A DNA stretch of 64,000 bases. It comes from Patescibacteria group bacterium (lineage in GTDB: Bacteria; Patescibacteriota; Minisyncoccia; Minisyncoccales; UBA10102). Position numbers and translations under genes: made by a program. Shown in pieces: positions 11,233 through 44,820 of the stretch. Where the stretch lies: contig JADFNM010000001.1 of assembly GCA_022563395.1 (NCBI GenBank), positions 178,830 to 242,829 of the forward strand, given 5' to 3'. The notes below the pieces were generated by a model. The model was given only the letters and a program-made list of their open reading frames with translations, searched no databases and had not been told where the DNA came from. Position 1 is the first letter of the stretch. Each line of letters begins with the position of its first letter.

Positions 11233-11240
11233 TCATATTG

Positions 11241-11278: not shown

Positions 11279-11287
11279 CGATAATGG

Positions 11288-16598: not shown

Positions 16599-16603
16599 TC
16601 ATT

Positions 16604-16677: not shown

Positions 16678-16787
16678 CGTGTACGAACAGAGTCAAGAAC
16701 TTTCTTGCTCTTATAATTAATAACAAGATACGGGGTATTGAAATGGACTTTTCCCTAGTCTAATGGTATAATAACTTACATAAGATT

Positions 16788-17024: not shown

Positions 17025-17026
17025 CC

Positions 17027-17590: not shown

Positions 17591-17635
17591 ATTCTTTACT
17601 TTCTAATAAACTTGTACTGTAAAAACAATCAAAGA

Positions 17636-17668
17636 ATCGCCAAATAGGCGGTTTTTTGGTAAGGTAGA
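17636..17668 (+). promoter_or_regulatory. Conserved hairpin-T6-GGTARRRT promoter module (ATCGCCAAATAGGCGGTTTTTTGGTAAGGTAGAGT), 4 nt before the ATG
   Basis: One of at least 9 copies of CGCCnnnnnnGGCGGTTTTTTGGTAGAAT located 5-20 nt upstream of start codons. Confidence 0.6.
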
Positions 17669-17671
17669 GTT

Positions 17672-17860
17672 ATGAGGGGCATTTACAGCATAACAAAGGG
17701 ACAATTGATTACACTATGGTTTTTTGGAACTATTGGTTGGCTTTTCGCTGGTCTCGTTTTGCTTAATGAAATTATCAGTGCCCTCCTGTATATTTTTTTG
17801 ATTCCGTTTATTCTTATTTTCTATACTATTGGTTGGAGAAATAGTAAAAAGAAAAAATAG
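17672..17860 (+). CDS. Small membrane protein (62 aa, 2 TM)
   Basis: Hydrophobic 62-aa ORF immediately downstream of the promoter module. Confidence 0.45.
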   Translation: MRGIYSITKGQLITLWFFGTIGWLFAGLVLLNEIISALLYIFLIPFILIFYTIGWRNSKKKK

Positions 17861-17900
17861 TGAATAGCAGAGTAGGGGAGAAATAATCTATTATCTACCT

Positions 17901-18494
17901 ATGAAGAGGAAAACTAAAAAAAGTACAGAGCTTACTACTAAGGAAGATTTGGGTAGCGACGAGGGATACTTGGAAAGTGAAGCGGTAGTAAAGCCTCCAG
18001 AAAAAGATAGTTTATTAAAGAGAATCCTATCGAGATTAGGCATGGGCGCCTTAGTCGTTGGTGGTGGCGCACTCTTTAGTGTAATTACTATTTTACAATT
18101 TTTAGTTACTGCTATCATTGGTTTAGGAATGATATGGTGGGCAGTAGTCTTATTTTTAGACGGCTCCATTATTTTGGGCCTATTGGTTCTTTTAATCGGG
18201 ACCCCAATAGCTATTGGATTAACCCACTTTTTCTTTTTCTTCTTCCTGGCGATAGGAATCCTTGCAACGATAATATGGGGAGTTGCTAACCTATTTGGTG
18301 TCGGTCTTTCTTTTGGTAATGCCTGGGATATTATTTGGCTGGTTATTGAGGTAGTGCTGCTTGGGGGTATGGCTTTTCTGGGAGTAAGTGGATTGATTGA
18401 AGCGATAAAAGAAAAGAGGGTAGCAGAGTTTTTTAAAGGAAATTGGTTCTATCTTTTACTCTTTGCATTTCTTTTTTGGTTATTTTTTCTCTAA
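17901..18494 (+). CDS. Hypothetical polytopic membrane protein
   Basis: 197 aa with a charged N-terminus followed by about 5 TM helices. Confidence 0.45.
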   Translation: MKRKTKKSTELTTKEDLGSDEGYLESEAVVKPPEKDSLLKRILSRLGMGALVVGGGALFSVITILQFLVTAIIGLGMIWWAVVLFLDGSIILGLLVLLIGTPIAIGLTHFFFFFFLAIGILATIIWGVANLFGVGLSFGNAWDIIWLVIEVVLLGGMAFLGVSGLIEAIKEKRVAEFFKGNWFYLLLFAFLFWLFFL

Positions 18495-18518
18495 GAGAAA
18501 CCAGTAAAACATCATAGT

Positions 18519-18830
18519 ATGGTCAAAAAAATCTATAGAGCAAATAATAGAGATGGCATTCTTATTGTGTTTGAGGATGGAAAACAAGTCGGTTTAACTG
18601 ATATAATGCGTGGTGTCCTACAGAACACATTCCGTACCCAGTTGGAGAATATAAAAATGCACCCTATCCCTCAGGAAGAAGGGGCATTAGAGACGAGACC
18701 TGATGAAGTAACAGAGGTTATACAAAAAGAAACTGGCTATTATTTAGAGGTTTCGGGAGATAAAGGGGATTATGATATTTCCGTTTCTCCTGAGGAGCTT
18801 AAAACTCTAATTTTTCTTGATGATAAATAA
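18519..18830 (+). CDS. Hypothetical protein (103 aa)
   Basis: ORF with plausible coding composition. Paired with the next ORF across a 2-nt gap. Confidence 0.35.
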   Translation: MVKKIYRANNRDGILIVFEDGKQVGLTDIMRGVLQNTFRTQLENIKMHPIPQEEGALETRPDEVTEVIQKETGYYLEVSGDKGDYDISVSPEELKTLIFLDDK

Positions 18831-18832
18831 AT

Positions 18833-19060
18833 ATGTATCTTGATATTGTTCTCGGTTTTTATAATCGTGCTGATGGTGGCTATGCACCGTGGTTTATGAT
18901 TTTTGAGCGTGATGGAGGTAATACCAGGGAGATTCCATTTGATTGCAAAGAGACTGCTCAATCAGAAAAAGAAGCAATACGCATTGCAAAAGCACACGCA
19001 CTAAAGATACTGGAAGAAAGATACTCCTCATCCGTCCAAGTTCGCTTTAGAGAAAAGTAG
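18833..19060 (+). CDS. Hypothetical protein (75 aa)
   Basis: Immediately follows the previous ORF. Acidic small protein. Confidence 0.35.
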   Translation: MYLDIVLGFYNRADGGYAPWFMIFERDGGNTREIPFDCKETAQSEKEAIRIAKAHALKILEERYSSSVQVRFREK

Positions 19061-19112
19061 GGGATTATCGCACAAAACTATATGCAAAGGTGAACTTGCC
19101 ACCCAATAAAAG

Positions 19113-19130
19113 GGTTCTAACTTCGTCCAG
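19113..19130. repeat. GGTTCTAACTTCGTCCAG boundary motif (copy 1; about 34 bp near-identical to the copy at 19815)
   Basis: CAATAAAAGGGTTCTAACTTCGTCCAGTGCCCC at 19100-19135 versus the same sequence with one mismatch at 19802-19840. The two copies flank the P-loop kinase gene as direct repeats. Confidence 0.7.
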
Positions 19131-19218
19131 TGCCCCCGGCTGCTAATTTTAAGCTTAGATTCTAAGCACCCTATCGTGGAGTTAGAACTATGGGTGATTT
19201 TTTGATAAAGTGAACAAT

Positions 19219-19725
19219 ATGAAAAAGAAATTGAGATTCATCTTACTAAACGGGCCAATAGGTTCGGGTAAATCCACTACTGCCAATCTTCTGCAAAGCA
19301 AATTGAAAAGAACTGCTATATTGAGTGTGGAAGACATTAGACAACTTATTTCTGATTTCAAGCACAACAGAGAAGACCATCTCCTTACGTGGAAAATTAT
19401 CCATAGTATGTGTGATGAATATTTCAAAAATGGAATAAGTGTGTTGCTTGAACAGTCCTATTGTTCCAAAGATAATGTTAATCAATTTCTGCGTCTTGCA
19501 AAAAAGCACAAGTGCTCCATAGGTTTCTATCATCTTCAAGCACCAAGAAGTATTTTACTTGAAAGAATTAAGCAACGAAAGAAAGACCATAAGACTTCAA
19601 AAGCTAAAATAATAAGTAATATTAAAAAACACGAAGAAACGACCTACCCAGACGCTATTGTTATTGATACTTCTGAAATGAAACCGGTCGAAGTCGCTAA
19701 GCTTATTTTGAATGATTTAAAGTGA
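19219..19725 (+). CDS. P-loop NTPase/kinase (AAA_33/zeta-toxin-like nucleotide kinase fold); ORF also opens at GTG 19210
   Basis: Walker A LNGPIGSGKST and about 170 aa, kinase-sized. Flanked by direct repeats. Confidence 0.5.
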   Translation: MKKKLRFILLNGPIGSGKSTTANLLQSKLKRTAILSVEDIRQLISDFKHNREDHLLTWKIIHSMCDEYFKNGISVLLEQSYCSKDNVNQFLRLAKKHKCSIGFYHLQAPRSILLERIKQRKKDHKTSKAKIISNIKKHEETTYPDAIVIDTSEMKPVEVAKLILNDLK

Positions 19726-19814
19726 TTGGAGAAATAGTGTAACGTGGGGTGGGGTAATTTGTGTTAAGATGAGCTCAAACTATAGGCAAACCCTGACTTT
19801 CCTTGCAATAAAAG

Positions 19815-19832
19815 GGTTCTAACTTCGTCCAG
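19815..19832. repeat. GGTTCTAACTTCGTCCAG boundary motif (copy 2)
   Basis: Direct repeat of 19113-19130. Followed by the palindrome GCTTAAACGAGATTTAAGC at 19849-19867 and a promoter module. Confidence 0.7.
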
Positions 19833-19883
19833 TACCCCCTGCCATGATTGCTTAAACGAGATTTAAGCAATATGAGAAAAAGA

Positions 19884-19916
19884 ATCGCCATGCAGGCGGT
19901 TTTTTGATAGAGTAGG
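19884..19916 (+). promoter_or_regulatory. Hairpin-T6-promoter module (ATCGCCATGCAGGCGGTTTTTTGATAGAGT)
   Basis: Same module as at 17636. The ATG at 19920 follows 3 nt after GATT. Confidence 0.6.
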
Positions 19917-19919
19917 ATT

Positions 19920-20195
19920 ATGAAAAAGATTCATTTCTTCCTAGACGAATTCCACCACGGGGCTGTGAACCATGTGGTACATTTTACTGGCTTTACGCTC
20001 CTTGGATATGGATTAGGCATAGAGAACTGGTGGATTGTTATCCTCTCTCCTTTTGTCATGGAGATGGGTCATCTTTACAACTACTCTACGGGTAGAGACA
20101 GACACCATGCTATTCGCATCATTCCAATGCAGATAATAGCATGGCTCATCTTTGTAGGAATCGTATACTTACTTACAAGATTGTTTAGTTCATAG
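19920..20195 (+). CDS. Small membrane protein (91 aa)
   Basis: Hydrophobic helices, with His/Glu residues inside predicted helices. Confidence 0.4.
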   Translation: MKKIHFFLDEFHHGAVNHVVHFTGFTLLGYGLGIENWWIVILSPFVMEMGHLYNYSTGRDRHHAIRIIPMQIIAWLIFVGIVYLLTRLFSS

Positions 20196-20238
20196 AAGTT
20201 AAATTTGGAATATAAAACTCATCACTTAGCCTTATCCT

Positions 20239-20269
20239 GGTTCTAACGTCGTTCACGACACGCAGCTAG
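20239..20269. repeat. GGTTCTAACGTCGTTCACGACACGCAGCTAG boundary motif (left flank of the HExxH gene)
   Basis: A 31-bp near-identical direct repeat recurs at 21636-21666, on the other side of ORF 20315-21577. Confidence 0.7.
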
Positions 20270-20314
20270 TTTTAGAGGTTTGACGTGTTTGTGGATGCTT
20301 TGGTAAAATGAAAT

Positions 20315-21577
20315 ATGGAAAATAATTTTTATAGTAAAGGGCAAAGTTTAGTTGGTATAGCTATTATTTCAGTCATTATTAGCTTAATAGTAATAGGTGG
20401 TTTATATTTTTATTTTTCAAAACAAATCCCAGAAGTGTCTAAAATTTCCGAAAAACAAGCCGAAGAAATAATTCAACCAGAAGAGGTTATTCTTCCATCT
20501 GAAGAGTTACCCAAAGAAGAAATTGCTCCAGAGAAGAAAGTTGTAGAAATCTCAATTAAGGCTCCCAAGGAAACGGAGCTAGAAGCCCCCGCACCCCAAT
20601 CACCGCGCAAACCCTTTCCACCAACTGTTAGGATTGAGGCAAATCCAAGCACAGTGCCATCTGGAACACCAGTTACTCTTTCTTGGACTTCTGAAAACGC
20701 AGATTCTTGTATTGCAAAAGACGATTGGTCAGGATCGTTGGAGCTTTCTGGGCAAAGAACAGTTACTCCTCCTAGATCCATATCATACTATCCTGTAGAA
20801 TGCCGGAATCCATTCGGTATCGCATCATATTCTGTAACTATATATGTAGAGTCTATTGCACCTTTACCCTCAGAGGATGCGCCATTAACACCTAAAGAAG
20901 GATTTAGTCTACTTGTTGTCTTCACTTACGAAGATACACCACTAGATTCTCAGATTAAAGAGGACTTATGTACCGGATCTGGCACAAATAAGTTTTCCTA
21001 TCTTCCAAAATGGTTCAAACGTGAAGCAAGCAGATACGGCGTTTCATTCTCAATGACGGTACAATGTCTTGATCAACAAGTTGAACTATCGCAGGATGTT
21101 ATTGAGACAACAAACACCTGTAAGGGTGGTCTCGGAGGTACATTCACTTGTCCATATGACAAAACAAAAGCAAAAAGTTATCTCGAACAAACCATTCCAT
21201 TACTACAGAATTATGATGTTGTGACGATTATGCATTATAAGCCTTATTCTTATGAATTTGGGGCTGATTCAGACGGTTCTGGGGGAAAATATAATTATAT
21301 ATACCTCGCAAAAGGCCCAGTTATCGACGGAGTCCAATATTATAACCCCAATGTAGGAAACGAAGGCAACCATGCTTTTGCTGCTGCACATGAAAGTCTC
21401 CATAATCTAGGAGCATCTGACTACTACTTTCAGGGTTCCGGATACAAATGTTTGATAGAATCTGATCCTACTTTAATTTATAATAGCAGGTATATAATGT
21501 GTGCTGCTGCTAGGGAAGATCCTTTTAGTAGTTATGTAATTTCTCCTGAGACTGCAAAAGAACTTGGATGGAGATAA
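20315..21577 (+). CDS. Membrane-anchored protein with a Pro/Glu-rich linker, an Ig/CARDB-like domain and a C-terminal HExxH (zincin-like) domain
   Basis: N-terminal TM, an EEIAPEKK linker, a PSTVPSGTPVTLSWTSENADSC beta-sandwich-like segment, and AAAHESLHNLGASDYY. Confidence 0.5.
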   Translation: MENNFYSKGQSLVGIAIISVIISLIVIGGLYFYFSKQIPEVSKISEKQAEEIIQPEEVILPSEELPKEEIAPEKKVVEISIKAPKETELEAPAPQSPRKPFPPTVRIEANPSTVPSGTPVTLSWTSENADSCIAKDDWSGSLELSGQRTVTPPRSISYYPVECRNPFGIASYSVTIYVESIAPLPSEDAPLTPKEGFSLLVVFTYEDTPLDSQIKEDLCTGSGTNKFSYLPKWFKREASRYGVSFSMTVQCLDQQVELSQDVIETTNTCKGGLGGTFTCPYDKTKAKSYLEQTIPLLQNYDVVTIMHYKPYSYEFGADSDGSGGKYNYIYLAKGPVIDGVQYYNPNVGNEGNHAFAAAHESLHNLGASDYYFQGSGYKCLIESDPTLIYNSRYIMCAAAREDPFSSYVISPETAKELGWR

Positions 21578-21635
21578 ATTCAAGCTATATTAAGAAGTCG
21601 TATGACGAGAATGTGAGCTCCTCACATACCAAAAG

Positions 21636-21666
21636 GGTTCTAACTTCGTCCACGACACGCAGCTAG
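21636..21666. repeat. GGTTCTAACTTCGTCCACGACACGCAGCTAG boundary motif (right flank)
   Basis: Direct repeat of 20239-20269. Confidence 0.7.
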
Positions 21667-21690
21667 CAGTTCTGAATAGCAAAAATCGCA

Positions 21691-22074
21691 ATGCAAGAAA
21701 ACAAACTAACGATTCAAATTAACAAACCTATTGTAGAGGTTTTTGCTTTTACGACGAATCCGCAAAACACGCCTTTGTGGCTTGACTCAGTAGTTACTGA
21801 ACAAGTGAATGAGTGGCCAGCAAGACAAGGGAGTATTTATAAGAATCAAGATACAGATGGAAACTGGTCAGAGTATGTCGTAAGTGAGTGGAGAGAAAAC
21901 GAAATGTTTGTATGGGACAAAAAGAATAGTAATTACCATGTTAGGTATATCTTTACGCCAGTAGACGAAAATATCACAGAACTTGAATACTATGAATGGG
22001 TAGATACAGGAGAGCTTGATAAACCCTTTACCCAGAAAATACTAGAAAAGCTAAAGCGCGTTTTGGAAAATTAG
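21691..22074 (+). CDS. Hypothetical protein, possibly SRPBCC/START-like fold
   Basis: 127 aa, about the size of a small ligand-binding fold. Weak match only. Confidence 0.3.
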   Translation: MQENKLTIQINKPIVEVFAFTTNPQNTPLWLDSVVTEQVNEWPARQGSIYKNQDTDGNWSEYVVSEWRENEMFVWDKKNSNYHVRYIFTPVDENITELEYYEWVDTGELDKPFTQKILEKLKRVLEN

Positions 22075-23108: not shown

Positions 23109-24422
23109 ATGAGAGCAAAAATCCCCTTTATCTTCATTGTTGTTTCCCTTATGTTTGTCAGCATGTTTGTCGGCGCTTTTTTAGTCGGAGAGGTTAAGGC
23201 GCAGACAAAAGATTCCCAAGAGCTGTCAAAGGTTTTAGTGATTGACATTGAAGGAGAGATTCGCGCCGGCACGGTTCAGTTTGTAAAGCGCGCTTTGACA
23301 AAGGCCCAAGCTGGCGACTTTGAACTTTTTCTTATTCAACTGAACACCCCAGGTGGGCTCTTAAAGGCCACCGAAGAGATCAGCCGGCTTTTGCTGGACA
23401 GCAAAATACAAACCGCCGTGTTTGTTCATAAAAACGGCGGCTGGGCATTTTCGGCCGGCACTTTTATTCTTCTGTCTGCAGAAATTGCAGTTAGCCATCC
23501 CAATGCCTCAATTGGTGCGGCTCAGCCGCGCGCTTTGGGTATTGGGGAAGTCGCGGAGCCTGATGAAAAAATTATTAAAGCCTCAAGCATTTGGATGAAA
23601 TCATTAGCTGAAGCTCGCGGACGAAACCTCGAGGTCGCGGAAAAATTCGTCCTGGAAAATCTAACATTAAGCGGTAAAGAGGCACACGAACAAAATATTA
23701 TTAATTTCACCGCCGTATCTTTGGATGAACTTCTCAACAAGCTTAAATTTAAAGACGCCGCCATAGAAGAAGTAACGCCAAATCTCTTAGAGCAAATCCT
23801 GTCTTTTCTTTCCATTTCTTTTCTAATTCCGCTTTTACTTGGCATTGGGTCTTTAGGGTTGTTCTTTGTATTTCGCACAGGCGAGGTGGAAATTGGAATT
23901 TTCGCTATCGCTGCTCTTCTTTTAGGACTGTGGGGAATGGGGGCTATCAATCTTTCGGTGCTGGGAGCAACGCTTTTGTTCTTTGGTATTGCTCTTATTA
24001 TTCTTGAAATTTTTGTGATGCCCGGATTTGGTGTTTTTGGCATAGCTGGAACCATCGCCTTTCTTTTTGGGATACTCACCTTTGCCCAAGAGCCGTTCTT
24101 ACCAAGCGTTTTTACCAATGCAGCTTTTTGGTTTGTGATGGGGGTGACGTTGGCTGTTTCTGTGTTTTTCATTGTTCTTGGCAGATTGTCGCTTAAAACC
24201 CTAAGGGTAAAGGCCAGGGCTGGTCCGGAGGCTCTCACGGGAGAAACAGCTGTTGTAACCGAAACACTGCATCCCTACGGCAAGGTAAAGATTAACCGTG
24301 AGGACTGGGTGGCAAAAAATATTTCAGATAAAGAAGTTATTGAAGTGGGAGAGAAGGTAAGGGTTGTAAATATCCAGGGAAATACTATAATAGTAAAAGG
24401 GTCGAAAACTAGCATGCTGTAA
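23109..24422 (+). CDS. NfeD-family membrane-bound serine protease (ClpP-class)
   Basis: Signal/TM segment, ClpP-like domain LNTPGG...GWAFSAGTFILLSAE, TM segments, and a C-terminal OB-like beta domain. Confidence 0.75.
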   Translation: MRAKIPFIFIVVSLMFVSMFVGAFLVGEVKAQTKDSQELSKVLVIDIEGEIRAGTVQFVKRALTKAQAGDFELFLIQLNTPGGLLKATEEISRLLLDSKIQTAVFVHKNGGWAFSAGTFILLSAEIAVSHPNASIGAAQPRALGIGEVAEPDEKIIKASSIWMKSLAEARGRNLEVAEKFVLENLTLSGKEAHEQNIINFTAVSLDELLNKLKFKDAAIEEVTPNLLEQILSFLSISFLIPLLLGIGSLGLFFVFRTGEVEIGIFAIAALLLGLWGMGAINLSVLGATLLFFGIALIILEIFVMPGFGVFGIAGTIAFLFGILTFAQEPFLPSVFTNAAFWFVMGVTLAVSVFFIVLGRLSLKTLRVKARAGPEALTGETAVVTETLHPYGKVKINREDWVAKNISDKEVIEVGEKVRVVNIQGNTIIVKGSKTSML

Positions 24423-24437
24423 AAACTTGTAAATATT

Positions 24438-25205
24438 ATGGAATTTTTGTTTAATTTATTTTTCTCAACTGGAGGAATTATTGTTATCGTCGCCATCATT
24501 CTTTTCTCAGCTGTAAAGATTGTCAGGGAATATGAGCGGGCAGTTATTTTTCGCTTGGGACGCTTGGTGGGCACGCGTGGACCCGGTCTTTTTCTGCTTA
24601 TCCCAATGATTGAAAAAATGGTCAAGCTTGATCTTCGGATTATTACCCTTGATGTGCCGGCCCAAGAGGTTATCACCCGCGACAACATACCCATAACGGT
24701 TGACGCGGTGCTGTATTTTAAGGTTTCTGACCCTATTCGTGCAGTGGTTGAGGTTGAAAACTTTCTGAAAGCAACTTCGCAAATCGCCCAGACATCGCTT
24801 AGGGGAGTTGCCGGCGAGGCGGCTTTTGACGAGATTCTGGCCGAGCGTGAGAAGATTAACACCAAGCTTCACAAAATTATTGACATTGCCACGGACCCTT
24901 GGGGAATTAAAGTCTCGGCGGTGGAAATAAAGCACGTTGAGGTGCCAGAAGCCATGCAGCGGGCAATTGCCAAACAGGCGGAAGCTGAGCGGACAAGACG
25001 GGCAAAAGTAATTTTGGCCGAGGGAGAATTTCAGGCGGCTCAAAAACTAAAGGATGCCGGTGAAATTCTCGGCGCCAACCCAATTGTGTTTCGCTATCTT
25101 GAAACCATAGCAGAAGCGGCTAAAGAAAAAAGCAATACCATCATCTTCCCGGCCGAGATGCTTGACTTGGTCAAAAAAATCTCCCGAAAATCGGACATGC
25201 AGTGA
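24438..25205 (+). CDS. SPFH/band-7 protein (stomatin-like), cognate partner of NfeD
   Basis: N-terminal TM, band-7 core (VPAQEVITRDNIPITVDAVLYFKV), and a coiled-coil C-terminus. Classic nfeD-stomatin operon. Confidence 0.8.
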   Translation: MEFLFNLFFSTGGIIVIVAIILFSAVKIVREYERAVIFRLGRLVGTRGPGLFLLIPMIEKMVKLDLRIITLDVPAQEVITRDNIPITVDAVLYFKVSDPIRAVVEVENFLKATSQIAQTSLRGVAGEAAFDEILAEREKINTKLHKIIDIATDPWGIKVSAVEIKHVEVPEAMQRAIAKQAEAERTRRAKVILAEGEFQAAQKLKDAGEILGANPIVFRYLETIAEAAKEKSNTIIFPAEMLDLVKKISRKSDMQ

Positions 25206-36526: not shown

Positions 36527-37738
36527 ATGTTTTCCTTGCTGAAGAATAAAAAGATTTTAGCTTGGACTTTCTATGATTTTGCCGATACTGCCCTGGCAGC
36601 TCTTTTCTTTACCTTTTTCTGGCCCTTGCTTATCAAAGAACATTTGGGAGGAAATGAATTCCAGATTGGCCTTGTTATGGGTCTTTCGCTTCTTTTCGTA
36701 GCGCTCTTTGTGCCTTTGATAGGAGCAATATCTGACGCCACTGGCAGACGCATGCCAATTCTTATTATATCTACTTTGCTGACCGCTATTTTTGCAGTTC
36801 TTACCGGATACATGGGTTTAGTTGGAGCTTTAATTCTGGGGTTTCTGGTACGGTTTTTGTTCACCGTTGATATTGATCTCTACGACGCTAAACTGGTTGA
36901 TATTGTTGCGCGTTCCAAAATCGGCTTTGTATCCGGCCTGGGAGTTGCCATTGGATATCTTGGCACAATAGTTGGCCTGGCCGTAGCCTATCCATTGCTG
37001 GAGTATTTTGGCTGGGACACGTTGCTTGGCATTCAAGTGATTTTTATTGAAGGGGCGCTCTTTCTGCTTATTTTCTCTCTTCCTCTTTTCTTGTTGGTTA
37101 AAGATAAACCCCTCAAAGAAAAAATACCCTTTCTGTCTGCTTTTCGCAAAGGTCTTAAAGCACTGAAGTTTACCATTACCAACCTTAAACAATTCCCGGC
37201 CTTTGGCAGGTTCCTGCTTGCTTCTTTTATCTACAACGATGCGGTAAATACCACGCTTATATTTTTAGTGCTGTATGCCACAAGCGTTATTGGCCTTCAA
37301 ATCAAGGAGTTTTTCTTTGTTTTTGTCCTTATGGCTTTGGGAGCTGGAGTTGGAGCACTCATATTTGGGTATCTTTCAGGCAGCTTTAGTCCCAAACGAG
37401 CCCTAATCATTGCTCTTGGAATGTGGATTTTTGTCATTGTTTATCTCCTTTTAATCAAAACCTTTGCCAGCATACTTATTGCCGGAATTATAGGAGGGGC
37501 GGCACTTGGAGGCATCTGGACCGCGAATCGGCATATGGTAGTTCTAATCTCGCCATATCGGAAAATAGCTGAGTTTTTTGGCATTGAAGGGTTAACCGAA
37601 CGCCTCTCCGGGGTCTTGGGACCTATTATTTTTGGCGCAATTGTTGTCACGATTGGATACCAAGTTGCTCTTTTCTTTATCCTCTTTTTGTTCATTGCAG
37701 GCCTTGCTCTTCTTTTGAGAGTGCCGCTAAAAACTTGA
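36527..37738 (+). CDS. MFS-type transporter
   Basis: 12 predicted TM helices, a GAISDATGRR loop motif, and duplicated 6-TM halves. Confidence 0.6.
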   Translation: MFSLLKNKKILAWTFYDFADTALAALFFTFFWPLLIKEHLGGNEFQIGLVMGLSLLFVALFVPLIGAISDATGRRMPILIISTLLTAIFAVLTGYMGLVGALILGFLVRFLFTVDIDLYDAKLVDIVARSKIGFVSGLGVAIGYLGTIVGLAVAYPLLEYFGWDTLLGIQVIFIEGALFLLIFSLPLFLLVKDKPLKEKIPFLSAFRKGLKALKFTITNLKQFPAFGRFLLASFIYNDAVNTTLIFLVLYATSVIGLQIKEFFFVFVLMALGAGVGALIFGYLSGSFSPKRALIIALGMWIFVIVYLLLIKTFASILIAGIIGGAALGGIWTANRHMVVLISPYRKIAEFFGIEGLTERLSGVLGPIIFGAIVVTIGYQVALFFILFLFIAGLALLLRVPLKT

Positions 37739-38317: not shown

Positions 38318-38348
38318 CAAACTTTTGTTGGTTTTTTGGTAGAATGAG
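38318..38348 (+). promoter_or_regulatory. T6-GGTAGAAT promoter module 3 nt before the ATG at 38352
   Basis: GTTGGTTTTTTGGTAGAATGAGAATATG. Confidence 0.5.
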
Positions 38349-38998: not shown

Positions 38999-39108
38999 AG
39001 TTAGATCCCGATAGGTAGGAGGGTGTGATCTCTTATTATACTAACCAATCAATCGCCAAACAGGCGGTTTTTTGGTAGAGTAAGGATGGCGAATTTCAGA
39101 GGAGAGAA

Positions 39109-39552: not shown

Positions 39553-39588
39553 GAATCGCCAGTACGGCGATTTTTTGGTAGAATCAAA
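39553..39588 (+). promoter_or_regulatory. Hairpin-T6-GGTAGAAT promoter module before acpS
   Basis: ATCGCCAGTACGGCGATTTTTTGGTAGAATCAAAT, then ATG. Confidence 0.6.
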
Positions 39589-39589
39589 T

Positions 39590-39922
39590 ATGATTATGAA
39601 ACTCGGGACTGATATCGTACATATTCCAAGATTTGAAAAGACATTGAGAGAAAGTCGGGAATACTTTGAACAGAATGTGTTCTGCCCCGAAGAATGGGCA
39701 GATTCATCAATAGAGAAATTAGCTGGAAGATTTGCAGCAAAGGAAGCAACACTCAAGGCCTTGGGTATTAAAGCTGGCCGCTGGCAAGAAATTTGCGTCA
39801 AAAATTCAGAAGATGGAAAACCGTTCCTTGCTTCCTTCCTAATGCAGAAAAAATGGAAACATGAACTTTCCATTTCTCACGACGGTGAATACGCAATTGC
39901 TGTCGTAGTATTCTATCGGTGA
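39590..39922 (+). CDS. acpS: Holo-[acyl-carrier-protein] synthase (ORF opens at 39518 inside the repeat)
   Basis: MIMKLGTDIVHIPRF...FAAKEATLKALG...ISHDGEYAIAVVV, the 4'-phosphopantetheinyl transferase signature. Confidence 0.8.
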   Translation: MIMKLGTDIVHIPRFEKTLRESREYFEQNVFCPEEWADSSIEKLAGRFAAKEATLKALGIKAGRWQEICVKNSEDGKPFLASFLMQKKWKHELSISHDGEYAIAVVVFYR

Positions 39923-39944
39923 TTCCCCCATGTTGAGCAGGGAA

Positions 39945-42488
39945 TCACAGGTTTCTTATTTTTTCTTCAATAAAACGGGCAGCTTCTTGATAGGTCATTG
40001 TTTGGTCAATGAGAAAAGGTTTTCCAAAGGTTATCTTGACCCTGTGACGACGAGGCCATCGAAACACAGGAGGCGCTCCTTCGGGTCCCGGTTGGACAAC
40101 CTGTTGGGTTCCTTTTAGTTTGACAGGCACAATGGGAACTCCCATTTCAATTGCCAAGAGTCCGGCACCCCCTTTGAACTCCCTAAGTCTCCCGGTCCTG
40201 GACATGACCCCTTCTGGGAATACCAACACCGAGAAATCACGGTCAATAATGCGCCCAAGATATTCCACGGATGACTTTACCTGCCCGCTGCGTGAGAAAG
40301 GAAACATAACGAAAAGAAATTCTAGAAATCCTTTCGCATACTTAATCCAAGGCGTTTGTGTTTCATACAAAACCTCGGTGGCGGCAGCCACTGCAAGCCG
40401 TTTTCGAATCCTGGCGGGTAGTGCTCCATAGATTACACCTACATCAATCGTACTTAAATGATTTGAGAAAAAGAGAACAGGATGTTTGATGTGCTCTATA
40501 TTCTCTAATCCCTTTATTTCTACGGGGGCAACATACAAAACCAAGGGCTTGAGAAAAAATATCTGAAAAAGTGCTCTCAAGAAGGTGGTATAACTTCCAA
40601 ATGGTCTTGGATTAAATGGATAGAGTATGTGTTTTTGCTTTTTCTCTGTAATCGTTTCCCGTATGTCTCGCACAGTGGTCTGGGGAGTAATTTCAGCTTC
40701 GTCTAAGGCAACAGAAAACTCGCTTTCAATTCTGGCTACGAGCTCAATGCGCTTTAGGGAGTCTAGATTGAAGTCAGCAACAAGCCGCTTCTCGTCTTTA
40801 ACCTCTTGTACAGGAACCTCTGCTACCTTTGCAACAATCTCTTGAAGGATTGAAGGGGTCTTAGAAGGAAGCTCCTCCTTTCTTTTACCTTGAATCTCAG
40901 CTTCAATAACTGGCAGCACTTCATGTTTCTTTACTTTTCTCGTGGGAGTACGGGGAAAATCATCCAAAGACCATACAGAGAAACCTTGAATCCTCTGATA
41001 TGCCATCAATTTGGCATTGACTTTATTAATAATGGTTTGAGGATTGACCTCTGTATCTTTTTTAAGGAGAAGAACTGCGTGTACTTGTTCCTCTCCATTC
41101 CTTTTTAAGCCAAGAACCGTAGAATCAGCCACTCCATGTTCTTTGTTCAGCTCAAACTCAATATCCTCAGGGTATACATTCTCACCAGAGGGCAGTACAA
41201 TCATAAATTTTTTGCGGCCTCTAATGTGAAGGTATCCTTTTCGGTCAAAAAATCCAATGTCTCCGGTCCGAAGCCACCCTTTTTCGTCAAATATTTCTTT
41301 TGTTTTCTGTTCGTCCCTCCAATATCCAGCAAAGATATTTGGGCCTTTCGCAAGTATTTCTCCGTCCCCTGAAAGTTTGAGAGTTACGCCTTGAACTGGC
41401 TTGCCGACAGATGCAATAGTGCGCTCTTGATAGCTGTTGACGGTGAGCACGGGTGAAGTTTCGGTGAGACCGTATCCCTGGAGAATATAGATACCCAAAC
41501 TCTCCCAAAATTCACCCACCTCTTTTGAAAGTGCAGCTCCCCCAGAAGCGATGGTATGCATGTTCCACCCAAACTTTTTATGGATGTTGCGAAAAAAGAG
41601 TCGGCGCAAAGCCATGGATGGGATTGCTTGAGAAATTGAAAGCAGCACTTCCAGCATTCTGAGCTTATGTTTTATTTCAGCTTGGTCTCTGATTCTAAGA
41701 TATATGAGCCGTAAAAATTCCGGCACTGCCAACATGCGGTTTGGTTTATCATCTTGAAATATCCTGCTCAGATGGTTTGGACTCAGAGAAGCCGCATAGC
41801 TTACTTGAGCGCCAGCGGCAAGGGGAACCAGCATGCCTCCCAACTGTTCAAACATGTGAAAAAGCGGAAGAATTGAGACAAATCGCATGGTGTGGTCTAC
41901 GGGGATTGCCTTGCGGGAACCTGCAAGACTGGAAAGAAGGTTTTTATGCGTAAGGATAACACCCTTGGGGTTTCCTGTGGTTCCTGAAGTATATACAATC
42001 TCTGCGATATCATGTTCGCCAAGAGCAGGAAGGGAAGCATGGACTGGCGTACTGGGTTTTGCTATGTCTTCAATAAAAACAATAGGAATAGAAATTCCTT
42101 TGGTTGAGATGGTGCGATTTTTGAAGATACATTTTGCTTGAGTTTGTCTGACTATACCCTGAATAAACTCAGGTTTACTCTCGGGACTGAGAGGCACCGC
42201 TACCGCTCCCCGAAGCTGGATACCAAAGAATGAAGCTACCCAAAAAGGGGAATTAAATCCTATAAGAACTACGCGATCTCCCTTTTGAATGTTGTGTTGC
42301 CCGAGAATATGCGCAAAGGAAACCGCATGATTCCATAAATCTTGGTATGTCCAGCTCAGTGTCCGAAATCTGGGACGATACAGGTATGCGGTTTGAGAAG
42401 TGTATCTTTGGCATACACGAAAAAAGAGTTCTGGAAGGGTCTTTTGTTCCATGCTGTCATTATACCTATGAAAGAAAGGGGTTATCAA
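39945..42488 (-). CDS. Tri-domain acyl-activating enzyme: AMP-dependent acyl-CoA/ACP synthetase + phosphopantetheine carrier domain + PlsC-type acyltransferase (Aas-like)
   Basis: AMP-binding motifs YTSGTTGNPKGV and GWLRTGDIG, carrier motif LGADSLKRIEL-like (FNLDSLKRIELVARIE), and acyltransferase HxxxxD motif FFSNHLSTIDVG. Confidence 0.75.
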   Translation of the reverse strand: MITPFFHRYNDSMEQKTLPELFFRVCQRYTSQTAYLYRPRFRTLSWTYQDLWNHAVSFAHILGQHNIQKGDRVVLIGFNSPFWVASFFGIQLRGAVAVPLSPESKPEFIQGIVRQTQAKCIFKNRTISTKGISIPIVFIEDIAKPSTPVHASLPALGEHDIAEIVYTSGTTGNPKGVILTHKNLLSSLAGSRKAIPVDHTMRFVSILPLFHMFEQLGGMLVPLAAGAQVSYAASLSPNHLSRIFQDDKPNRMLAVPEFLRLIYLRIRDQAEIKHKLRMLEVLLSISQAIPSMALRRLFFRNIHKKFGWNMHTIASGGAALSKEVGEFWESLGIYILQGYGLTETSPVLTVNSYQERTIASVGKPVQGVTLKLSGDGEILAKGPNIFAGYWRDEQKTKEIFDEKGWLRTGDIGFFDRKGYLHIRGRKKFMIVLPSGENVYPEDIEFELNKEHGVADSTVLGLKRNGEEQVHAVLLLKKDTEVNPQTIINKVNAKLMAYQRIQGFSVWSLDDFPRTPTRKVKKHEVLPVIEAEIQGKRKEELPSKTPSILQEIVAKVAEVPVQEVKDEKRLVADFNLDSLKRIELVARIESEFSVALDEAEITPQTTVRDIRETITEKKQKHILYPFNPRPFGSYTTFLRALFQIFFLKPLVLYVAPVEIKGLENIEHIKHPVLFFSNHLSTIDVGVIYGALPARIRKRLAVAAATEVLYETQTPWIKYAKGFLEFLFVMFPFSRSGQVKSSVEYLGRIIDRDFSVLVFPEGVMSRTGRLREFKGGAGLLAIEMGVPIVPVKLKGTQQVVQPGPEGAPPVFRWPRRHRVKITFGKPFLIDQTMTYQEAARFIEEKIRNL

Positions 42489-42575: not shown

Positions 42576-43781
42576 ATGGATGAAAGCTCGCAACGCGAGC
42601 GGATACGGCTCCGCAAACAATTGCTCAAAGAAATTCAAACCCTCAAAGACCGAAGAGGATTTCTAAGAGCCGGCCTACCCAACTATAATCGTTTATTTGG
42701 AAGAGATTCTTTGATTGCCGCTTGGCAATTATTAGATTGGAATCCGGGAATCTGCAAATCAACTTTAGAAATTCTCTCTCAACATCAGGGTAAACTGTTT
42801 AACGACGAAAGAGAAGAAGAGCCCGGTAAGATAATCCATGAAATGGATTTGGAGGAGAGTTGGCATCCTGACCACTACTTTCCCTTTCCTTACTATGGCT
42901 CTGTTGACTCCACTCTTCTTTACCTGATTCTTTTTGCTTTTTATTTCAAAAAAACAAAAGATCGAAAGTTTCTGCAGGAGCATTGGGAAAATGTCCTCAT
43001 GGCTTTGCACTGGCTAGAAGAATGTGGTGATAAGGATAAGGACTATTTTATTGAGTACAAAAGAAAAAATCCAAACGGACTTTTTCATCAGGGATGGAAA
43101 GATAGTTTTGAGAATCATTTGAAAATAAAGCCACCTGTGGCTATTGTAGAAGTTCAAGGATATCACTACTTGGCCTTAGAAGAGATTGCCAACTTGGCAG
43201 ATGTAAGAAGAGACTTTGATTTGAGAGAGAAACTCAAAGAAAGGGCAGAAAACTTGAAAAAAGAGTTTAATAAAAAATTCTGGATGGATGAGAAAAATTA
43301 CTTTGCATTGGGATTAGACGGAAAAAAGAGACAGAGGAAAGCAATTACTTCCAATCCCGGACGTTGTCTTTTTACGGGTATTATAGATGATGAGAAAAAA
43401 CAGAAAATAGTGGAAAGGCTATTTGAAAAAGATATGTGGACACCTTTTGGCATCCGCACTCATTCAACGCAAGAACCGGATTTTGACCCTCAAGCCTATC
43501 ACCTGGGGTCCGTTTGGCCTCACGATAACTGGATAATAGCTCAAGGTTTGAAGAAATACGGCTTCTTCAATGAATATCAAAAAATAAGACAAGCTTTATT
43601 TGCAGCACACAGAGAACTTGGTTTTCTTCCTGAGCACTACGGGGTAATTGATGGAAAAGTTATTCCAATCTCTACCGCAGCTTACCCCCAGGCTTGGGCA
43701 ACCTGTGCCCTGTTTAACTTTCTCGGTTTGCAGATTCATGAGAAAATCCTCAGGATTCCCTTAAGGATTTTTCGCTGGTAA
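42576..43781 (+). CDS. Glycogen-debranching-enzyme-like (amylo-alpha-1,6-glucosidase, six-hairpin glycosidase fold) protein
   Basis: 401 aa with GFLRAGLPNYNRLFGRDSLI and later W/D/E-rich segments typical of (alpha/alpha)6 glycosidases. Confidence 0.45.
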   Translation: MDESSQRERIRLRKQLLKEIQTLKDRRGFLRAGLPNYNRLFGRDSLIAAWQLLDWNPGICKSTLEILSQHQGKLFNDEREEEPGKIIHEMDLEESWHPDHYFPFPYYGSVDSTLLYLILFAFYFKKTKDRKFLQEHWENVLMALHWLEECGDKDKDYFIEYKRKNPNGLFHQGWKDSFENHLKIKPPVAIVEVQGYHYLALEEIANLADVRRDFDLREKLKERAENLKKEFNKKFWMDEKNYFALGLDGKKRQRKAITSNPGRCLFTGIIDDEKKQKIVERLFEKDMWTPFGIRTHSTQEPDFDPQAYHLGSVWPHDNWIIAQGLKKYGFFNEYQKIRQALFAAHRELGFLPEHYGVIDGKVIPISTAAYPQAWATCALFNFLGLQIHEKILRIPLRIFRW

Positions 43782-43788
43782 TCTTTTT

Positions 43789-44820
43789 TCACCTCTTCTG
43801 ACGGAGAATATCTTTGTACAGTTGCTCATAGTTATCCACCATGGTCTGCATGGAAAAATTCTCGACAACATGTTCACGACAGCGCCGCCTTAAGATAGCG
43901 TGAAGATTCTTTAAGGCTCGAACAGCCTCCTCCTTGGTATCAACAAGAAATCCTGTTTCGCCATCTTTGATTAACTCTGGCATAGCGCCGGATCTCGCAG
44001 CAATAACCGGAGTGCCGCAAGCCATGGCCTCAATAACTACAAGACCAAAGGGTTCTTGTCTTTTAAATACTGGAAAGAGTAAACCTTTTGCTTCCCTAAG
44101 AAGTCTTACTTTCTTTTTAAAATCTGCAACTCCCACAAATTGAATCTGTTTCCCGTCGATTAAAGGTTTGATTCGATACTCAAAGTAGTCTGCACTCCTT
44201 GGAAAGATTGGACCTGCAATTATAAGCTTCTCCCCGGCCATCTTCGCAATTTCAATAGCATCTGGTAACCCCTTGTCAGGAGCAATAAGAGATAACCAAA
44301 GAAGGTAATCTTTTGGTCTCGCATTAAAGCGATACCTAGCAATATCAATACCGTTGTAGATTCTTTTCGCGATATGTAACCCTGGTGCGGATTTCTTCTG
44401 ATCATCCGAAATTGCTACATAATGAATATTCGGGAATTTTTTGTATATAATGGTATTTTCTTCGGTAAGGGGACTATGGATAGTACTGACGACAGGAGGC
44501 CTAAAAAAATTGCTGAAGGGGGCTGTGGAATATTCCCAATGGTCATGAATGATGTCAAATTCATCCTGTCGTTCCAAAAGTTCTTTACAGAGCAAAGCGA
44601 ATACAGCATAGGTATACCAAACACCAGCGTCTTTATAGACACCTGTAGGCCATATGGGGATTAATTTCGCCTTCGTCTTTGAATCGGCGGTAGCGAACAG
44701 GGTTACCTCATGCCCTCTCTTTACTAGCTCCTCAGTAACAAGAGAAGTTATAAGAGTGCTCCCCCCGTAGGTTTGGGGAGGGACCTCAAACCAGAGAGGG
44801 GCTACTTGTGCAATACGCAT
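43789..44820 (-). CDS. Glycosyltransferase family 4
   Basis: GT-B fold with N-terminal GGSTLIT and the C-terminal EPFGLVVIEAMACGTPVIA motif. Confidence 0.75.
   Translation of the reverse strand: MRIAQVAPLWFEVPPQTYGGSTLITSLVTEELVKRGHEVTLFATADSKTKAKLIPIWPTGVYKDAGVWYTYAVFALLCKELLERQDEFDIIHDHWEYSTAPFSNFFRPPVVSTIHSPLTEENTIIYKKFPNIHYVAISDDQKKSAPGLHIAKRIYNGIDIARYRFNARPKDYLLWLSLIAPDKGLPDAIEIAKMAGEKLIIAGPIFPRSADYFEYRIKPLIDGKQIQFVGVADFKKKVRLLREAKGLLFPVFKRQEPFGLVVIEAMACGTPVIAARSGAMPELIKDGETGFLVDTKEEAVRALKNLHAILRRRCREHVVENFSMQTMVDNYEQLYKDILRQKR

Follow-up and report, generated by a model that had tools for sequence, protein, structure and literature searches.

The Aas protein of Escherichia coli (b2836), a 2-acyl-GPE acyltransferase / acyl-ACP synthetase, has the domain order AT-ACS, uses free holo-ACP in trans, and has LplT as its partner. 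In Chlamydia trachomatis, the acyl-ACP synthetase AasC and LpaT/CT775 form a host-lipid salvage system. The closest described relative of the protein studied here is ElbD of Myxococcus xanthus (MXAN_1528, Q1DC43), an ether-lipid enzyme with the order FAR-ACS-ACP-AGPAT. The activities of the ACS and ACP domains of ElbD have been confirmed in vitro, the acyltransferase activity of purified ElbD was undetectable, and its acyltransferase has been described as AGPAT/GNPAT-like (PMC9131029). The architecture of the present fusion is also already known, since the same study described 'ElbD-like homologues lacking the FAR domain' in other phyla; ElbD matches have been reported in Woesearchaeia (PMC11868695).

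CPR bacteria and DPANN archaea have membranes but no known lipid synthesis, and CPR bacteria are enriched in lysolipids; the study concerned reported no enzyme for making ACP, and none depending on it, in the CPR genomes examined (PMC7242380). Here we analyzed a stretch of DNA of 64 kb (the window) in which acpS lies next to a gene for a tri-domain fusion. We consider it rather probable that the 835-aa product of this gene acts as a self-contained salvage acyltransferase for fatty acids which is primed by AcpS; its acceptor is most probably a lysophospholipid.

Results

Extent and start of the fusion gene

The fusion gene (acyl-adenylating enzyme, carrier, and PlsC/Aas-type acyltransferase) is located at 39945..42452 on the minus strand and encodes 835 aa followed by the stop codon. 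The initial annotation had given a protein of 847 aa. This maximal ORF is present in the ORF list (39945..42488, minus strand), and we have corrected its likely product to 835 aa. That is, translation probably starts at the ATG at 42452 (M13), because the NCBI protein (P0001) has 835 aa, the alignments of homologues begin at this residue, and the TTG upstream is a -35 hexamer. The best sigma70-like match, TTGATA-18-TATAAT at 42459..42488 (minus strand), fits the consensus at 11 of 12 positions, being a consensus match only, and the 12 extra codons of the 847-aa ORF are likely to be the promoter of the fusion gene itself and not coding sequence. There are 6 nt between the end of the -10 hexamer and the ATG, which suggests that the transcript is leaderless.

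The AF2 model of the fusion had a pLDDT of 87.9 and a pTM of 0.85. When the PDB was searched with the whole model by Foldseek, only adenylation or A-PCP structures were obtained, and no tri-domain structure was found there.

Domains and catalytic residues

The three-domain make-up claimed initially was borne out by the domain boundaries from a Pfam profile search, in which each match was above its gathering score (847-aa numbering): AMP-binding at residues 22-390 (1.3e-69), PP-binding at 548-610 (1.2e-09), and Acyltransferase PF01553 at 656-791 (1.3e-19). The conservation of these domains was judged from 16 homologues, in all of which the P-loop, the A10 Lys, the carrier Asp-Ser, the HX4D, and the PEG are invariant, and from an alignment of 70 homologues with 39-86% identity.

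The adenylation (ANL/ACSL-like) domain as a whole extends over residues 22-529 (40902..42425, minus strand; PF00501 1.3e-69). Its score of 235 bits with PF00501 places it in the ANL superfamily. It carries the P-loop YTSGTTGNPKG and Lys518 as the A10 Lys, and the P-loop [YF]TSGTTGxPKG, GYGxTE, TGD, and the A10 Lys are all present and invariant in the alignment of homologues. In the PDB, FadD13 (3r44) was matched at 7e-38, and the AF2 model was aligned with MatB (4fut) by Foldseek with a TMt of 0.85; the FAAL structures 3pbk, 3kxw, and 7r7e were poorer matches than the FACS structures. No NCBIfam equivalog attained its cutoff on the adenylation part.

The phosphopantetheine carrier (ACP-like) domain is encoded at 40659..40847 (minus strand; residues 548-610, PF00550 1.2e-09). 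The carrier motif DFNLDSLKRIEL that had been pointed out in the initial annotation was found at 40740-40775 (minus strand), with the codon of the attachment Ser at 40758-40760. This Ser is Ser577 in the 847-aa numbering and Ser565 in the 835-aa numbering, and it is invariant in 70/70 homologues. The fusion therefore has, unlike Aas, a carrier domain of its own in cis, as had been claimed, and this middle domain keeps the conserved Ser.

Directly before the acyltransferase core there is a long, moderately hydrophobic helix, FLRALFQIFFLKPLVLYVA (40530..40595, minus strand), which corresponds to the DSSP helix 620-641 of the AF2 model. It is the sole segment of the fusion with a Kyte-Doolittle value of 1.6 or more (peak 1.68), and it is probably an interfacial membrane anchor. 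The PlsC/Aas-type O-acyltransferase domain follows at 40116..40523 (minus strand; residues 656-791). The C-terminal HxxxxD acyltransferase of the initial annotation is seen here as NHLSTID (HX4D; 40443-40463, His codon 40458-40460), and FPEGVMSRTG and VPIVPV are also present. The score with PF01553 was 70.7 bits against a gathering score of 23, which places the domain in the LPLAT superfamily, and the H, D, E, and G of its motifs are invariant in all 70 homologues.

Relation of the acyltransferase to Aas and PlsC

In BLASTP against E. coli Aas, residues 35-432 of the fusion were aligned with Aas 233-630 (27% identity, 1e-32) and residues 659-783 with Aas 30-141 (29% identity, 2e-11). The two halves of Aas are thus found in reversed order in the fusion, as had been noted from the sequence; the match coordinates of the NCBIfam models agree with this order. 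The fusion scored far below the NCBIfam Aas cutoffs (188 vs 1221 bits for NF006386 and 171 vs 1349 for NF005291, both models of LplT-Aas fusions), and NF005959 (PRK08043) matched the AT domain only (34 bits, cutoff 886).

The closest solved structure to the acyltransferase domain was the PlsC of T. maritima (5kym, 5.8e-08), and the domain also matched AGP_acyltrn (TIGR00530) at 1.3e-13. Together with the membership in PF01553 and with the description of the ElbD acyltransferase as AGPAT/GNPAT-like (PMC9131029), these matches would fit a GPAT or LPAAT, that is, an enzyme which transfers the carrier-bound acyl group to glycerol-3-phosphate and/or 1-acyl-G3P and so uses scavenged fatty acids to make phosphatidic acid de novo. 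We think that this is unlikely, because the Aas-type models and E. coli Aas outscored PlsC. The Aas-type PRK08633 matched the domain at 1.2e-17, and the acyltransferase of E. coli Aas matched it at 1e-13 and E. coli PlsC at 2e-09, a modest preference of 53 vs 42 bits. With TIGR00530 the domain reached 50.9 bits, below the cutoff of 102.95, and motif III lacks the Thr-Arg of the FPEGTR found in the PlsC of E. coli and T. maritima. The fusion shows the Aas-type acyltransferase motifs (HX4D; FPEG-R-I-T-x-T-G): the motif III consensus of its homologues, FPEG[RK][IVM]Sx[TS]G, resembles the FPEGRITTTG of Aas and differs from the FPEGTRS of PlsC. The residue after PEG is Val in the window protein, whereas it is Arg or Lys in most homologues. 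In addition, no cdsA, plsY, or gpsA was found in the scanned part of the 64-kb window, which also speaks against phosphatidic acid synthesis de novo.

Taken together, these comparisons place the acyltransferase modestly nearer to Aas-type lysophospholipid acyltransferases than to PlsC. Of the Aas-like function proposed in the initial annotation, the likeness of the acyltransferase is upheld, and the lysophospholipid acceptor itself is what we still infer.

Neighbouring genes

The neighbours of the fusion in the window are acpS and genes for a glycoside hydrolase, a GT4 glycosyltransferase, PCMT, HPF, and an MFS transporter. The MFS transporter (403 aa; 36527..37738, plus strand) is of the ATG22/UMF1 type (PF11700 3.9e-29, PF07690 7e-29) and is separated from acpS by 1.85 kb, in which there are four small, unrelated genes. 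It is 52% identical to the MFS protein beside the acpS-fusion pair in locus L086 and matches one in L089 at 6.6e-130, and a member of its family is adjacent in the metagenome loci L105, L130, and L131 as well. It may be a lipid or fatty-acid importer or flippase. We rejected the idea that it is a homologue of LplT (E = 9.4 in BLASTP against E. coli LplT) and keep LplT as an analogy only; no LplT match by NCBIfam, and so no adjacent lplT, was seen in the neighbourhood of the fusion. An MFS fragment in L092 was placed outside the family of the window MFS.

Two alpha/beta serine hydrolases are encoded on the plus strand ahead of the MFS gene. The first (288 aa; 34589..35455; Pfam Abhydrolase_1, Peptidase_S9, DLH, and Abhydrolase_2) combines a TM anchor at its N-terminus with the nucleophile elbow GFSMG (GxSxG), shares 41% identity with a hydrolase encoded in L084 at a distance of 1 kb from the fusion, and may be an exo-facing (lyso)phospholipase or esterase. 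The second (354 aa; 35459..36523; Peptidase_S15 and BD-FAE) is likewise anchored by an N-terminal TM segment and has GISYG as its elbow (GxSxG). A homologue of the second hydrolase separates acpS from the fusion in L084 (26% identity, 1e-18), and one lies upstream of acpS in L122. As further observations, the window has a 291-aa ORF at 31.2-32.3 kb, and in L086 a gene for an NAD-dependent epimerase is found upstream of acpS.

The region 42576-44820, immediately past the fusion, contains glycosyltransferase and glycoside hydrolase genes. These sugar genes would suit an acceptor other than a glycerophospholipid (a lyso-aminolipid, a glycolipid, a lipoprotein or peptide, or a small metabolite), so that the fusion would be a minimal NRPS-like A-T-AT lipidation enzyme, and the PF01553 superfamily indeed takes in lyso-ornithine and lyso-glycine lipid acyltransferases, which matched the fusion weakly (1.7e-3 and 3.5e-3). 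We regard such an acceptor as quite improbable, because these matches are far below those to Aas and PlsC, the sugar genes are not conserved as neighbours, and the fusion is kept beside acpS in many minimal genomes of two domains and not in biosynthetic clusters.

Metagenomic surveys of 'ElbD homologues' assume an ElbD-type ether-lipid enzyme, which would make alkylglycerol or plasmalogen precursors. The ACS-ACP-AT order is that of ElbD (PMC9131029), the Woesearchaeia matches (PMC11868695) agree with such a reading, and the epimerase of L086 is reminiscent of elbA/elbE. However, there is no FAR domain: the AMP-binding domain begins at residue 22 of the maximal ORF, the protein begins about 10 residues before it, and the homologues begin at the same point. 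Since a reductase is lacking, no fatty aldehyde or alcohol would be formed by the fusion protein alone. As the fusion also has no neighbour resembling elbB or elbE in the window, we hold an ether-lipid role to be very improbable, and keep the salvage acyltransferase as the preferred reading.

The acpS gene and its linkage to the fusion

The acpS gene, which encodes a group-I holo-(acyl-carrier-protein) synthase of 110 aa, is located at 39590..39922 on the plus strand (PF01648 1.6e-13). Its product scored 62.8 with TIGR00516 (cutoff 59.8) and 51.1 with PF01648 (cutoff 25), which places it in the AcpS family, and the GxD (Mg-binding Asp) and AAKEAxxKA motifs are kept in an alignment with six neighbour-encoded homologues. 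Judging from this alignment and from a promoter motif upstream, the start is most likely the ATG at 39590. The extended -10-like motif TTTTGGTAGAAT (39573..39584, plus strand) ends 5 nt upstream of this ATG, which suggests that acpS has its own leaderless promoter; the motif occurs six times in the window against 0.88 expected, each time 5-27 nt upstream of an ORF start. The convergent acpS noted earlier is thus a real gene. It converges with the fusion, with 22 nt between the stop codons, and the two genes are therefore not co-transcribed in this genome.

Within the 64-kb window there was one AcpS HMM match, so that the statement that this is the only PPTase holds over this range. The carrier HMM matched the fusion alone, and phmmer with E. 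coli AcpP likewise found only the fusion ORF. No FAS-II genes, free acpP, or second PPTase were found in the window. A relative of the fusion at 59% identity has fabF 3 kb away, and holders of the fusion are therefore not uniformly free of FAS-II. When the FabF of this relative was used as the query, none was found on the source contig of the window among the best 120 matches, a range outside which a more divergent copy would fall.

The fusion is not unique, and its carrier and acyltransferase part is common to at least 223 clusters at 50% identity. In a profile search of genome contigs with full-length alignment, the matches listed were mostly ordinary acyl-CoA ligases, and about eight of them were full-length fusions, none from CPR.

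Of the genome loci from CPR bacteria and DPANN archaea, 10 of 10 have acpS directly beside the fusion or close to it, namely the window, L081, L084, L085 (Woesearchaeota), L086, L087 (Aenigmarchaeota), L089, L091, L092, and L002. The fusion thus recurs in CPR relatives, the conservation in which had been left as a check, and it does so together with acpS. The arrangement varies among these loci: acpS may be convergent, upstream on the same strand, or downstream on the same strand. On two archaeal contigs, which carry Topo VI, Spt5, S17e, S-layer, and CDC48 genes, acpS overlaps the start of the fusion. Among non-duplicate metagenome loci, acpS was near the fusion in 12 of 76, and it was absent within 6-8 kb of short-type fusions in several of them (e.g., L101, L115, and L173). 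In larger-genome bacteria, none of the nine loci had acpS in the flanks of the fusion.

The acpS-fusion linkage is a new result; in the part of the literature that we covered, we found no description of the linkage or of a salvage role of the fusion in CPR or DPANN. This conserved adjacency suggests that AcpS would phosphopantetheinylate the carrier domain of the fusion. The adjacency might instead be incidental, with AcpS serving the free AcpP of a FAS-II elsewhere, the adenylation domain making acyl-CoA or loading in trans onto free ACP, and the fusion not needing its internal carrier, as the fabF of the above relative and the convergent genes, which form no operon here, could indicate, but we find this hardly credible, because acpS accompanies the fusion in all ten CPR and DPANN loci despite their differing gene orders, overlaps its start on two contigs of archaea, which are not known to use AcpS or ACP for FAS, and faces a carrier Ser that never varies among the homologues.

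Discussion

We propose that the salvage acyltransferase may work as follows. The N-terminal long-chain acyl-adenylating domain would convert a scavenged free fatty acid and ATP to acyl-AMP, and the acyl group would then pass as a thioester to the phosphopantetheine arm of the fusion's own carrier, the neighbouring AcpS having converted the apo carrier domain to its holo form. The hydrophobic helix may hold the C-terminal PlsC/Aas-type domain at the membrane surface, where the HX4D dyad would serve to acylate a glycerolipid at its free hydroxyl. The most probable acceptor is a lysophospholipid, which is also what E. coli Aas acylates. It is plausible that lipids of the host or the environment are tapped for fatty acids or lysolipids by the two membrane-anchored hydrolases and the ATG22-type MFS protein. 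If AcpS primes the carrier of the fusion, the pair could work without free ACP in reduced genomes.

A broader speculation, which we put forward tentatively and with more doubt than belief, is that acpS and the ACS-carrier-acyltransferase gene, often with the ATG22-type MFS and exo-facing serine hydrolases, make up a compact, horizontally exchanged lipid-salvage cassette common to CPR and DPANN. AcpS would then serve only for priming the fusion, and scavenged fatty acids would be brought into ester-linked glycerolipids, including in archaea otherwise without ACP, FAS, or a bacterial-type lipid pathway.

The fusion offers a concrete and assayable candidate for fatty-acid re-esterification in CPR bacteria and DPANN archaea, with its own ACP, a priming enzyme encoded beside it, and a recurring transporter and surface hydrolases. 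Some DPANN archaea possibly install fatty-acyl esters. Caution is also advisable when FAR-less fusions are scored as 'ElbD homologues' and counted as ether-lipid potential in metagenome surveys.

Comparison with known systems

Compared by its described architecture (PMC9131029), ElbD shares with the fusion the ACS-ACP-AGPAT order on one chain. The fusion lacks the N-terminal FAR1-like reductase of ElbD, having three Pfam domains only, and it lacks the elb operon context, that is, an elbB (HAD) or elbE (epimerase) gene beside it; it is instead paired with acpS in reduced genomes.

In comparison with E. coli Aas, both halves are homologous and the type of motif III is the same. The proposed job is also alike, in that one protein would both activate a free fatty acid and attach it to a lysophospholipid, and an MFS gene is nearby in both cases. 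In contrast, the order in the fusion is ACS-carrier-AT, the fusion has its own carrier domain in place of free ACP, and the MFS protein of the window, being of the ATG22/UMF1 type, shows no detectable homology to LplT.

PlsC (T. maritima 5KYM, E. coli b3018) belongs to the same Pfam family as the acyltransferase domain, shares HX4D, PEG, and VPIVPV with it, and likewise has a hydrophobic helix ahead of the catalytic core. However, PlsC, with about 245 aa, is not fused to other domains, takes acyl-ACP or acyl-CoA from solution, and has FPEGTRS as motif III, and the fusion matches the Aas acyltransferase better.

The salvage proteins of Chlamydia, unlike the fusion, are separate and use free AcpP, and FAS-II is retained. 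The logic of the two systems is nevertheless similar, since in this obligate symbiont fatty acids of the host are activated onto ACP and used to acylate lysolipids.

Domain structure and start of the fusion protein

The maximal ORF of the fusion gene occupies 39945..42488 on the (-) strand and encodes 847 aa. A profile search, which the initial annotation had proposed, found three Pfam domains in this ORF, all above their gathering scores: AMP-binding at residues 22-390 (1.3e-69), PP-binding at residues 548-610 (1.2e-09), and PlsC-type Acyltransferase at residues 656-791 (1.3e-19). The two motifs quoted in that annotation were also located on the (-) strand, namely the carrier motif DFNLDSLKRIEL (Ser codon 40758-40760) and the acyltransferase motif SNHLSTID (His codon 40458-40460).

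In order to examine conservation, we aligned the protein with 16 and then 70 homologues, whose identity to it was 39-86%. The P-loop and the A10 lysine of the adenylation domain are conserved, as is the carrier Asp-Ser. The Ser of the middle domain, on which the initial annotation had made its reading depend, is present in all 70 homologues, and so are the His and Asp of the HX4D motif and the Glu-Gly of the PEG motif. The residue after PEG is Arg or Lys in most homologues but Val in the window protein.

The AlphaFold2 model built from the 70-sequence alignment was confident throughout (mean pLDDT 87.9, pTM 0.85), and only two short loops scored low. A 22-residue helix (FLRALFQIFFLKPLVLYVA), which is the sole moderately hydrophobic stretch of the protein, immediately precedes the acyltransferase core and, as in PlsC-type enzymes, may anchor the protein at the membrane interface. 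A Foldseek search of the whole model found no PDB entry with the three-domain arrangement.

Although the 847-aa ORF of the initial annotation exists, the protein itself is most likely 835 aa long and begins at the ATG at 42452. We moved the start there because the 835-aa version is identical to the NCBI protein P0001, because the aligned homologues also begin at that ATG, and because the best promoter-like site of the region by consensus match (TTGATA-18-TATAAT) has its -35 hexamer at the TTG at 42488 and its -10 hexamer ending 6 nt before the ATG. The carrier Ser is thus Ser577 of the ORF and Ser565 of the protein.

The convergent acpS gene and its promoter-like motif

The short (+) strand ORF ending at 39922 encodes an AcpS-type phosphopantetheinyl transferase (PF01648, 1.6e-13), and it scored 62.8 bits against TIGR00516, the cutoff of which is 59.8. 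Its start is most likely at 39590 (MIMKLGTD..., 110 aa), because six neighbour-encoded homologues begin there and the motif TTTTGGTAGAAT ends 5 nt upstream. The stop codons of acpS and the fusion gene are 22 nt apart. Since the two genes are convergent, they are separate transcription units in the window genome.

The motif TTTTGGTAGAAT resembles an extended -10 element. The window contains six copies of it, where 0.88 would be expected, and every one is followed by an ORF start at a distance of 5-27 nt. The copies, all on the (+) strand, are at 9619-9630, 29991-30002, 31063-31074, 38334-38345, 39070-39081 and 39573-39584, the last being that of acpS. From this placement, TTTTGGTAGAAT looks like the standard promoter of the window genome, and its position would imply many leaderless or near-leaderless mRNAs, that of acpS among them. 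The promoter-like site of the fusion gene, with TATAAT, differs from TTTTGGTAGAAT but is equally close to the start.

A GC-rich hairpin (GGCGGTTTTTTGG) precedes some of the TTTTGGTAGAAT copies. A 27-nt direct repeat consisting of the hairpin tail and the promoter motif is found at 31056-31082 and 31461-31487, 405 nt apart, and a perfect 17-nt inverted repeat lies at 31340-31378, between small ORFs that precede those of 291 and 348 aa. The repeats near 31 kb are probably terminator and promoter units. Elsewhere in the window, the GC content falls to 0.38-0.39 at 16001-22000, compared with about 0.45 outside it; this stretch, which is full of small ORFs and begins beside tRNA-Gln (16603-16676), is possibly an island of integrated or foreign DNA.

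Linkage of acpS and the fusion gene across genomes

The contigs of nine homologues were inspected, and further loci were scanned with an AcpS HMM. In the window, as well as in all nine CPR or DPANN loci covered, the acpS gene was beside the fusion gene. It is convergent with a 3-bp gap in L081 (67% identity to the window protein), downstream on the same strand in L092 (59%), and upstream in L084 (48%), with one hydrolase gene between. In L086 and L091 (41% each), in L089 of Liptonbacteria, and in L002, a short contig of a MAG labelled Methanosarcinales (pair at 907-3815), it is upstream on the same strand. In L085, a Woesearchaeota contig carrying Topo VI, Spt5 and S17e genes, acpS abuts the fusion start with one shared base (pair at 7612-10538), and in L087, an Aenigmarchaeota contig with S-layer, CDC48 and Hjc genes, it overlaps the fusion start (pair at 7682-10436).

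On the archaeal contigs L085, L087 and L002, the pair has the form of an operon, the two genes abutting or overlapping. In a rough NJ tree, the window clade stands next to a clade containing DPANN members and is separate from the main CPR clade. The archaeal operons and this tree suggest that the pair may have been transferred between domains.

The flanks of nine loci from bacteria with larger genomes (Acidobacteriota, Bacteroidales, a gammaproteobacterium, Babeliales and a 1-Mb contig) contained no acpS. We also scanned metagenomes, with the carrier and acyltransferase motifs as seeds, and obtained 80 further loci, 76 of them non-duplicate; acpS was within 2.4 kb of the fusion in 12 of these 76, and in 10 of the 12 it abutted the fusion. 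Among the metagenome loci with longer fusions (876-915 aa), 12 were informative, and none of these had acpS near. Several loci with short-type fusions, for example L101, L115 and L173, also had no acpS nearby, so that the link, though frequent, does not hold everywhere.

The adjacency outlasts changes of order and strand and spans the boundary between bacteria and archaea, which argues that AcpS and the fusion protein work together. The conserved linkage and the invariant Ser point to the obvious relation, namely priming by AcpS of the carrier domain within the fusion. The initial annotation had called this acpS the only PPTase, and the statement stands for the 64-kb window, in which no other PPTase and no other carrier protein was found.

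Other recurrent neighbours

Two alpha/beta serine hydrolase genes (34589-35455 and 35459-36523), each product having an N-terminal TM anchor and a GxSxG elbow, lie upstream in the window and are followed by a gene for an ATG22/UMF1-type MFS transporter (36527-37738). In L084, homologues of both hydrolases (41% and 26% identity) flank the fusion, one of them being that between acpS and the fusion; in the metagenome locus L122, a relative of hydrolase 2 is upstream of acpS. The window MFS protein is 52% identical to that of L086, which is encoded two genes from acpS, while the fusions themselves are 41% identical. It also matches the MFS protein of L089, divergent from acpS, and the same family abuts fusions in the metagenome loci L105, L130 and L131. 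As it shows no similarity to E. coli LplT, any parallel with the LplT-Aas pair is one of analogy only.

In L084, acpS, hydrolase and fusion form one co-directional block, the most operon-like form of the module, and a gene of the LPG_synthase_TM type (flippase-like; 10477-11502) overlaps the fusion 3' end. In L086 alone, a gene for an NAD-dependent epimerase/DUF1731 protein (6337-7242) is directly upstream of acpS, recalling elbA/elbE of the Myxococcus elb operon. The fusion also recurs with SPFH/Band_7 genes a few kb away, in the window (23109-25205 and 33706-34512), L084 (14919-17089) and L091 (5127-6065), accompanied by NfeD in the window and L084; one of the window Band_7 genes immediately precedes the pair of hydrolase genes. 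A connection with membrane microdomains is possible.

Proposed function in lipid salvage

The adenylation domain is nearest to long-chain fatty-acid CoA ligases (PRK06187, 2.4e-81; FadD13 3r44, 7e-38), and its fold matches ATP-bound MatB (Foldseek TMt 0.85). By homology, this ACSL-like domain would convert free fatty acid and ATP to acyl-AMP. Once AcpS has primed the carrier, its Ppant thiol on Ser565/577 would receive the acyl group, as the conserved linkage, the invariant Ser and the reported ACS and ACP activities of ElbD suggest. Finally, HX4D-catalysed O-acyl transfer to a glycerolipid would take place at the membrane surface, the Aas-type features favouring a lysophospholipid as the putative acceptor. 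More speculatively, the recurrent anchored hydrolases and MFS transporter may supply fatty acids or lysolipids. This mechanism would fit the reports that CPR cells are without known lipid synthesis and enriched in lysolipids (PMC7242380) and that Patescibacteria acquired lysophospholipase genes (PMC12455944).

No FAS-II or phospholipid-synthesis gene was found among the ORFs scanned in the 64-kb window. However, the CPR relative L092 encodes a FabF-type ketoacyl-ACP synthase (3538-4791, (-) strand) 3 kb from its fusion, so that at least some fusion carriers have parts of FAS-II. The closest relatives of this FabF, at 70% identity, are on much larger contigs, and two more distant ones among the matches listed are labelled Chloroflexi, which suggests that the gene is likely a recent horizontal acquisition. 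The observation of a fusion with a convergent acpS was confirmed; its interpretation as lipid salvage is supported in part, by the domains, the swapped Aas homology, the internal carrier and the acpS pairing, but not by a general lack of FAS-II among carriers.

Comparison with Aas and ElbD

We scanned the acyltransferase domain by itself and compared the window proteins directly with the products of E. coli aas, lplT and plsC. The domain matched PRK08633, the Aas-type acyl-[ACP]--phospholipid O-acyltransferase, at 1.2e-17, the generic PlsC model AGP_acyltrn at 1.3e-13, and T. maritima PlsC 5kym, the closest solved structure, at 5.8e-08. Against the E. coli Aas acyltransferase it scored 53 bits over motifs I-IV, and against E. 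coli PlsC 42 bits; its preference for Aas is thus modest. Motif III of the fusion family, FPEG[RK][IVM]Sx[TS]G, is of the Aas type (FPEGRITTTG) and not of the PlsC type (FPEGTRS).

Fusion residues 35-432 align with Aas 233-630 (27% identity, 1e-32) and residues 659-783 with Aas 30-141 (29% identity, 2e-11). Each half of Aas thus has its homologue in the fusion, but the order is swapped. Because of this and the motif III, the earlier description of an Aas-like protein with reversed domain order and its own carrier holds at the level of sequence. In architecture, the fusion protein departs from the Aas family on every point that defines membership.

The same three domains were present in each of the 120 best database matches, whose named sources include Patescibacteria, Liptonbacteria, Woesearchaeota, Aenigmarchaeota, Armatimonadetes, TA06 and Babeliales; the fusion is thus conserved in related CPR genomes, as the initial annotation had proposed to check. 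A query with the carrier and acyltransferase domains found at least 223 clusters at 50% identity (E <= 1e-30), most of them 800-900 aa long with the match C-terminal. These hundreds of homologues are already in databases, under generic names such as "AMP-binding protein" and "long-chain acyl-CoA synthetase", because no NCBIfam equivalog reaches its cutoff with the fusion protein. The new finding is that, in CPR and DPANN genomes, the fusion has a conserved pairing with acpS and, as further neighbours, MFS and hydrolase genes. This pairing makes a generic "AMP-binding protein" a specific candidate for fatty-acid re-esterification in the membrane salvage of ultra-small symbionts.

To judge from its domains, the closest described relative is ElbD of Myxococcus xanthus, a FAR-ACS-ACP-AGPAT protein whose ACS and ACP activities were confirmed in vitro while its acyltransferase activity was undetectable (PMC9131029). 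In "ElbD-like homologues" of other phyla, the FAR domain is reported to be missing almost always (PMC9131029), and surprising ElbD matches in DPANN Woesearchaeia MAGs were taken to indicate a potential for ether lipids (PMC11868695). Such a FAR-less form is what the window encodes; the protein differs from ElbD in having neither the reductase domain nor elb-type neighbours and therefore cannot perform the reductive step alone. It is a variant, lacking FAR, of the ElbD/Aas kind rather than a new kind of system.
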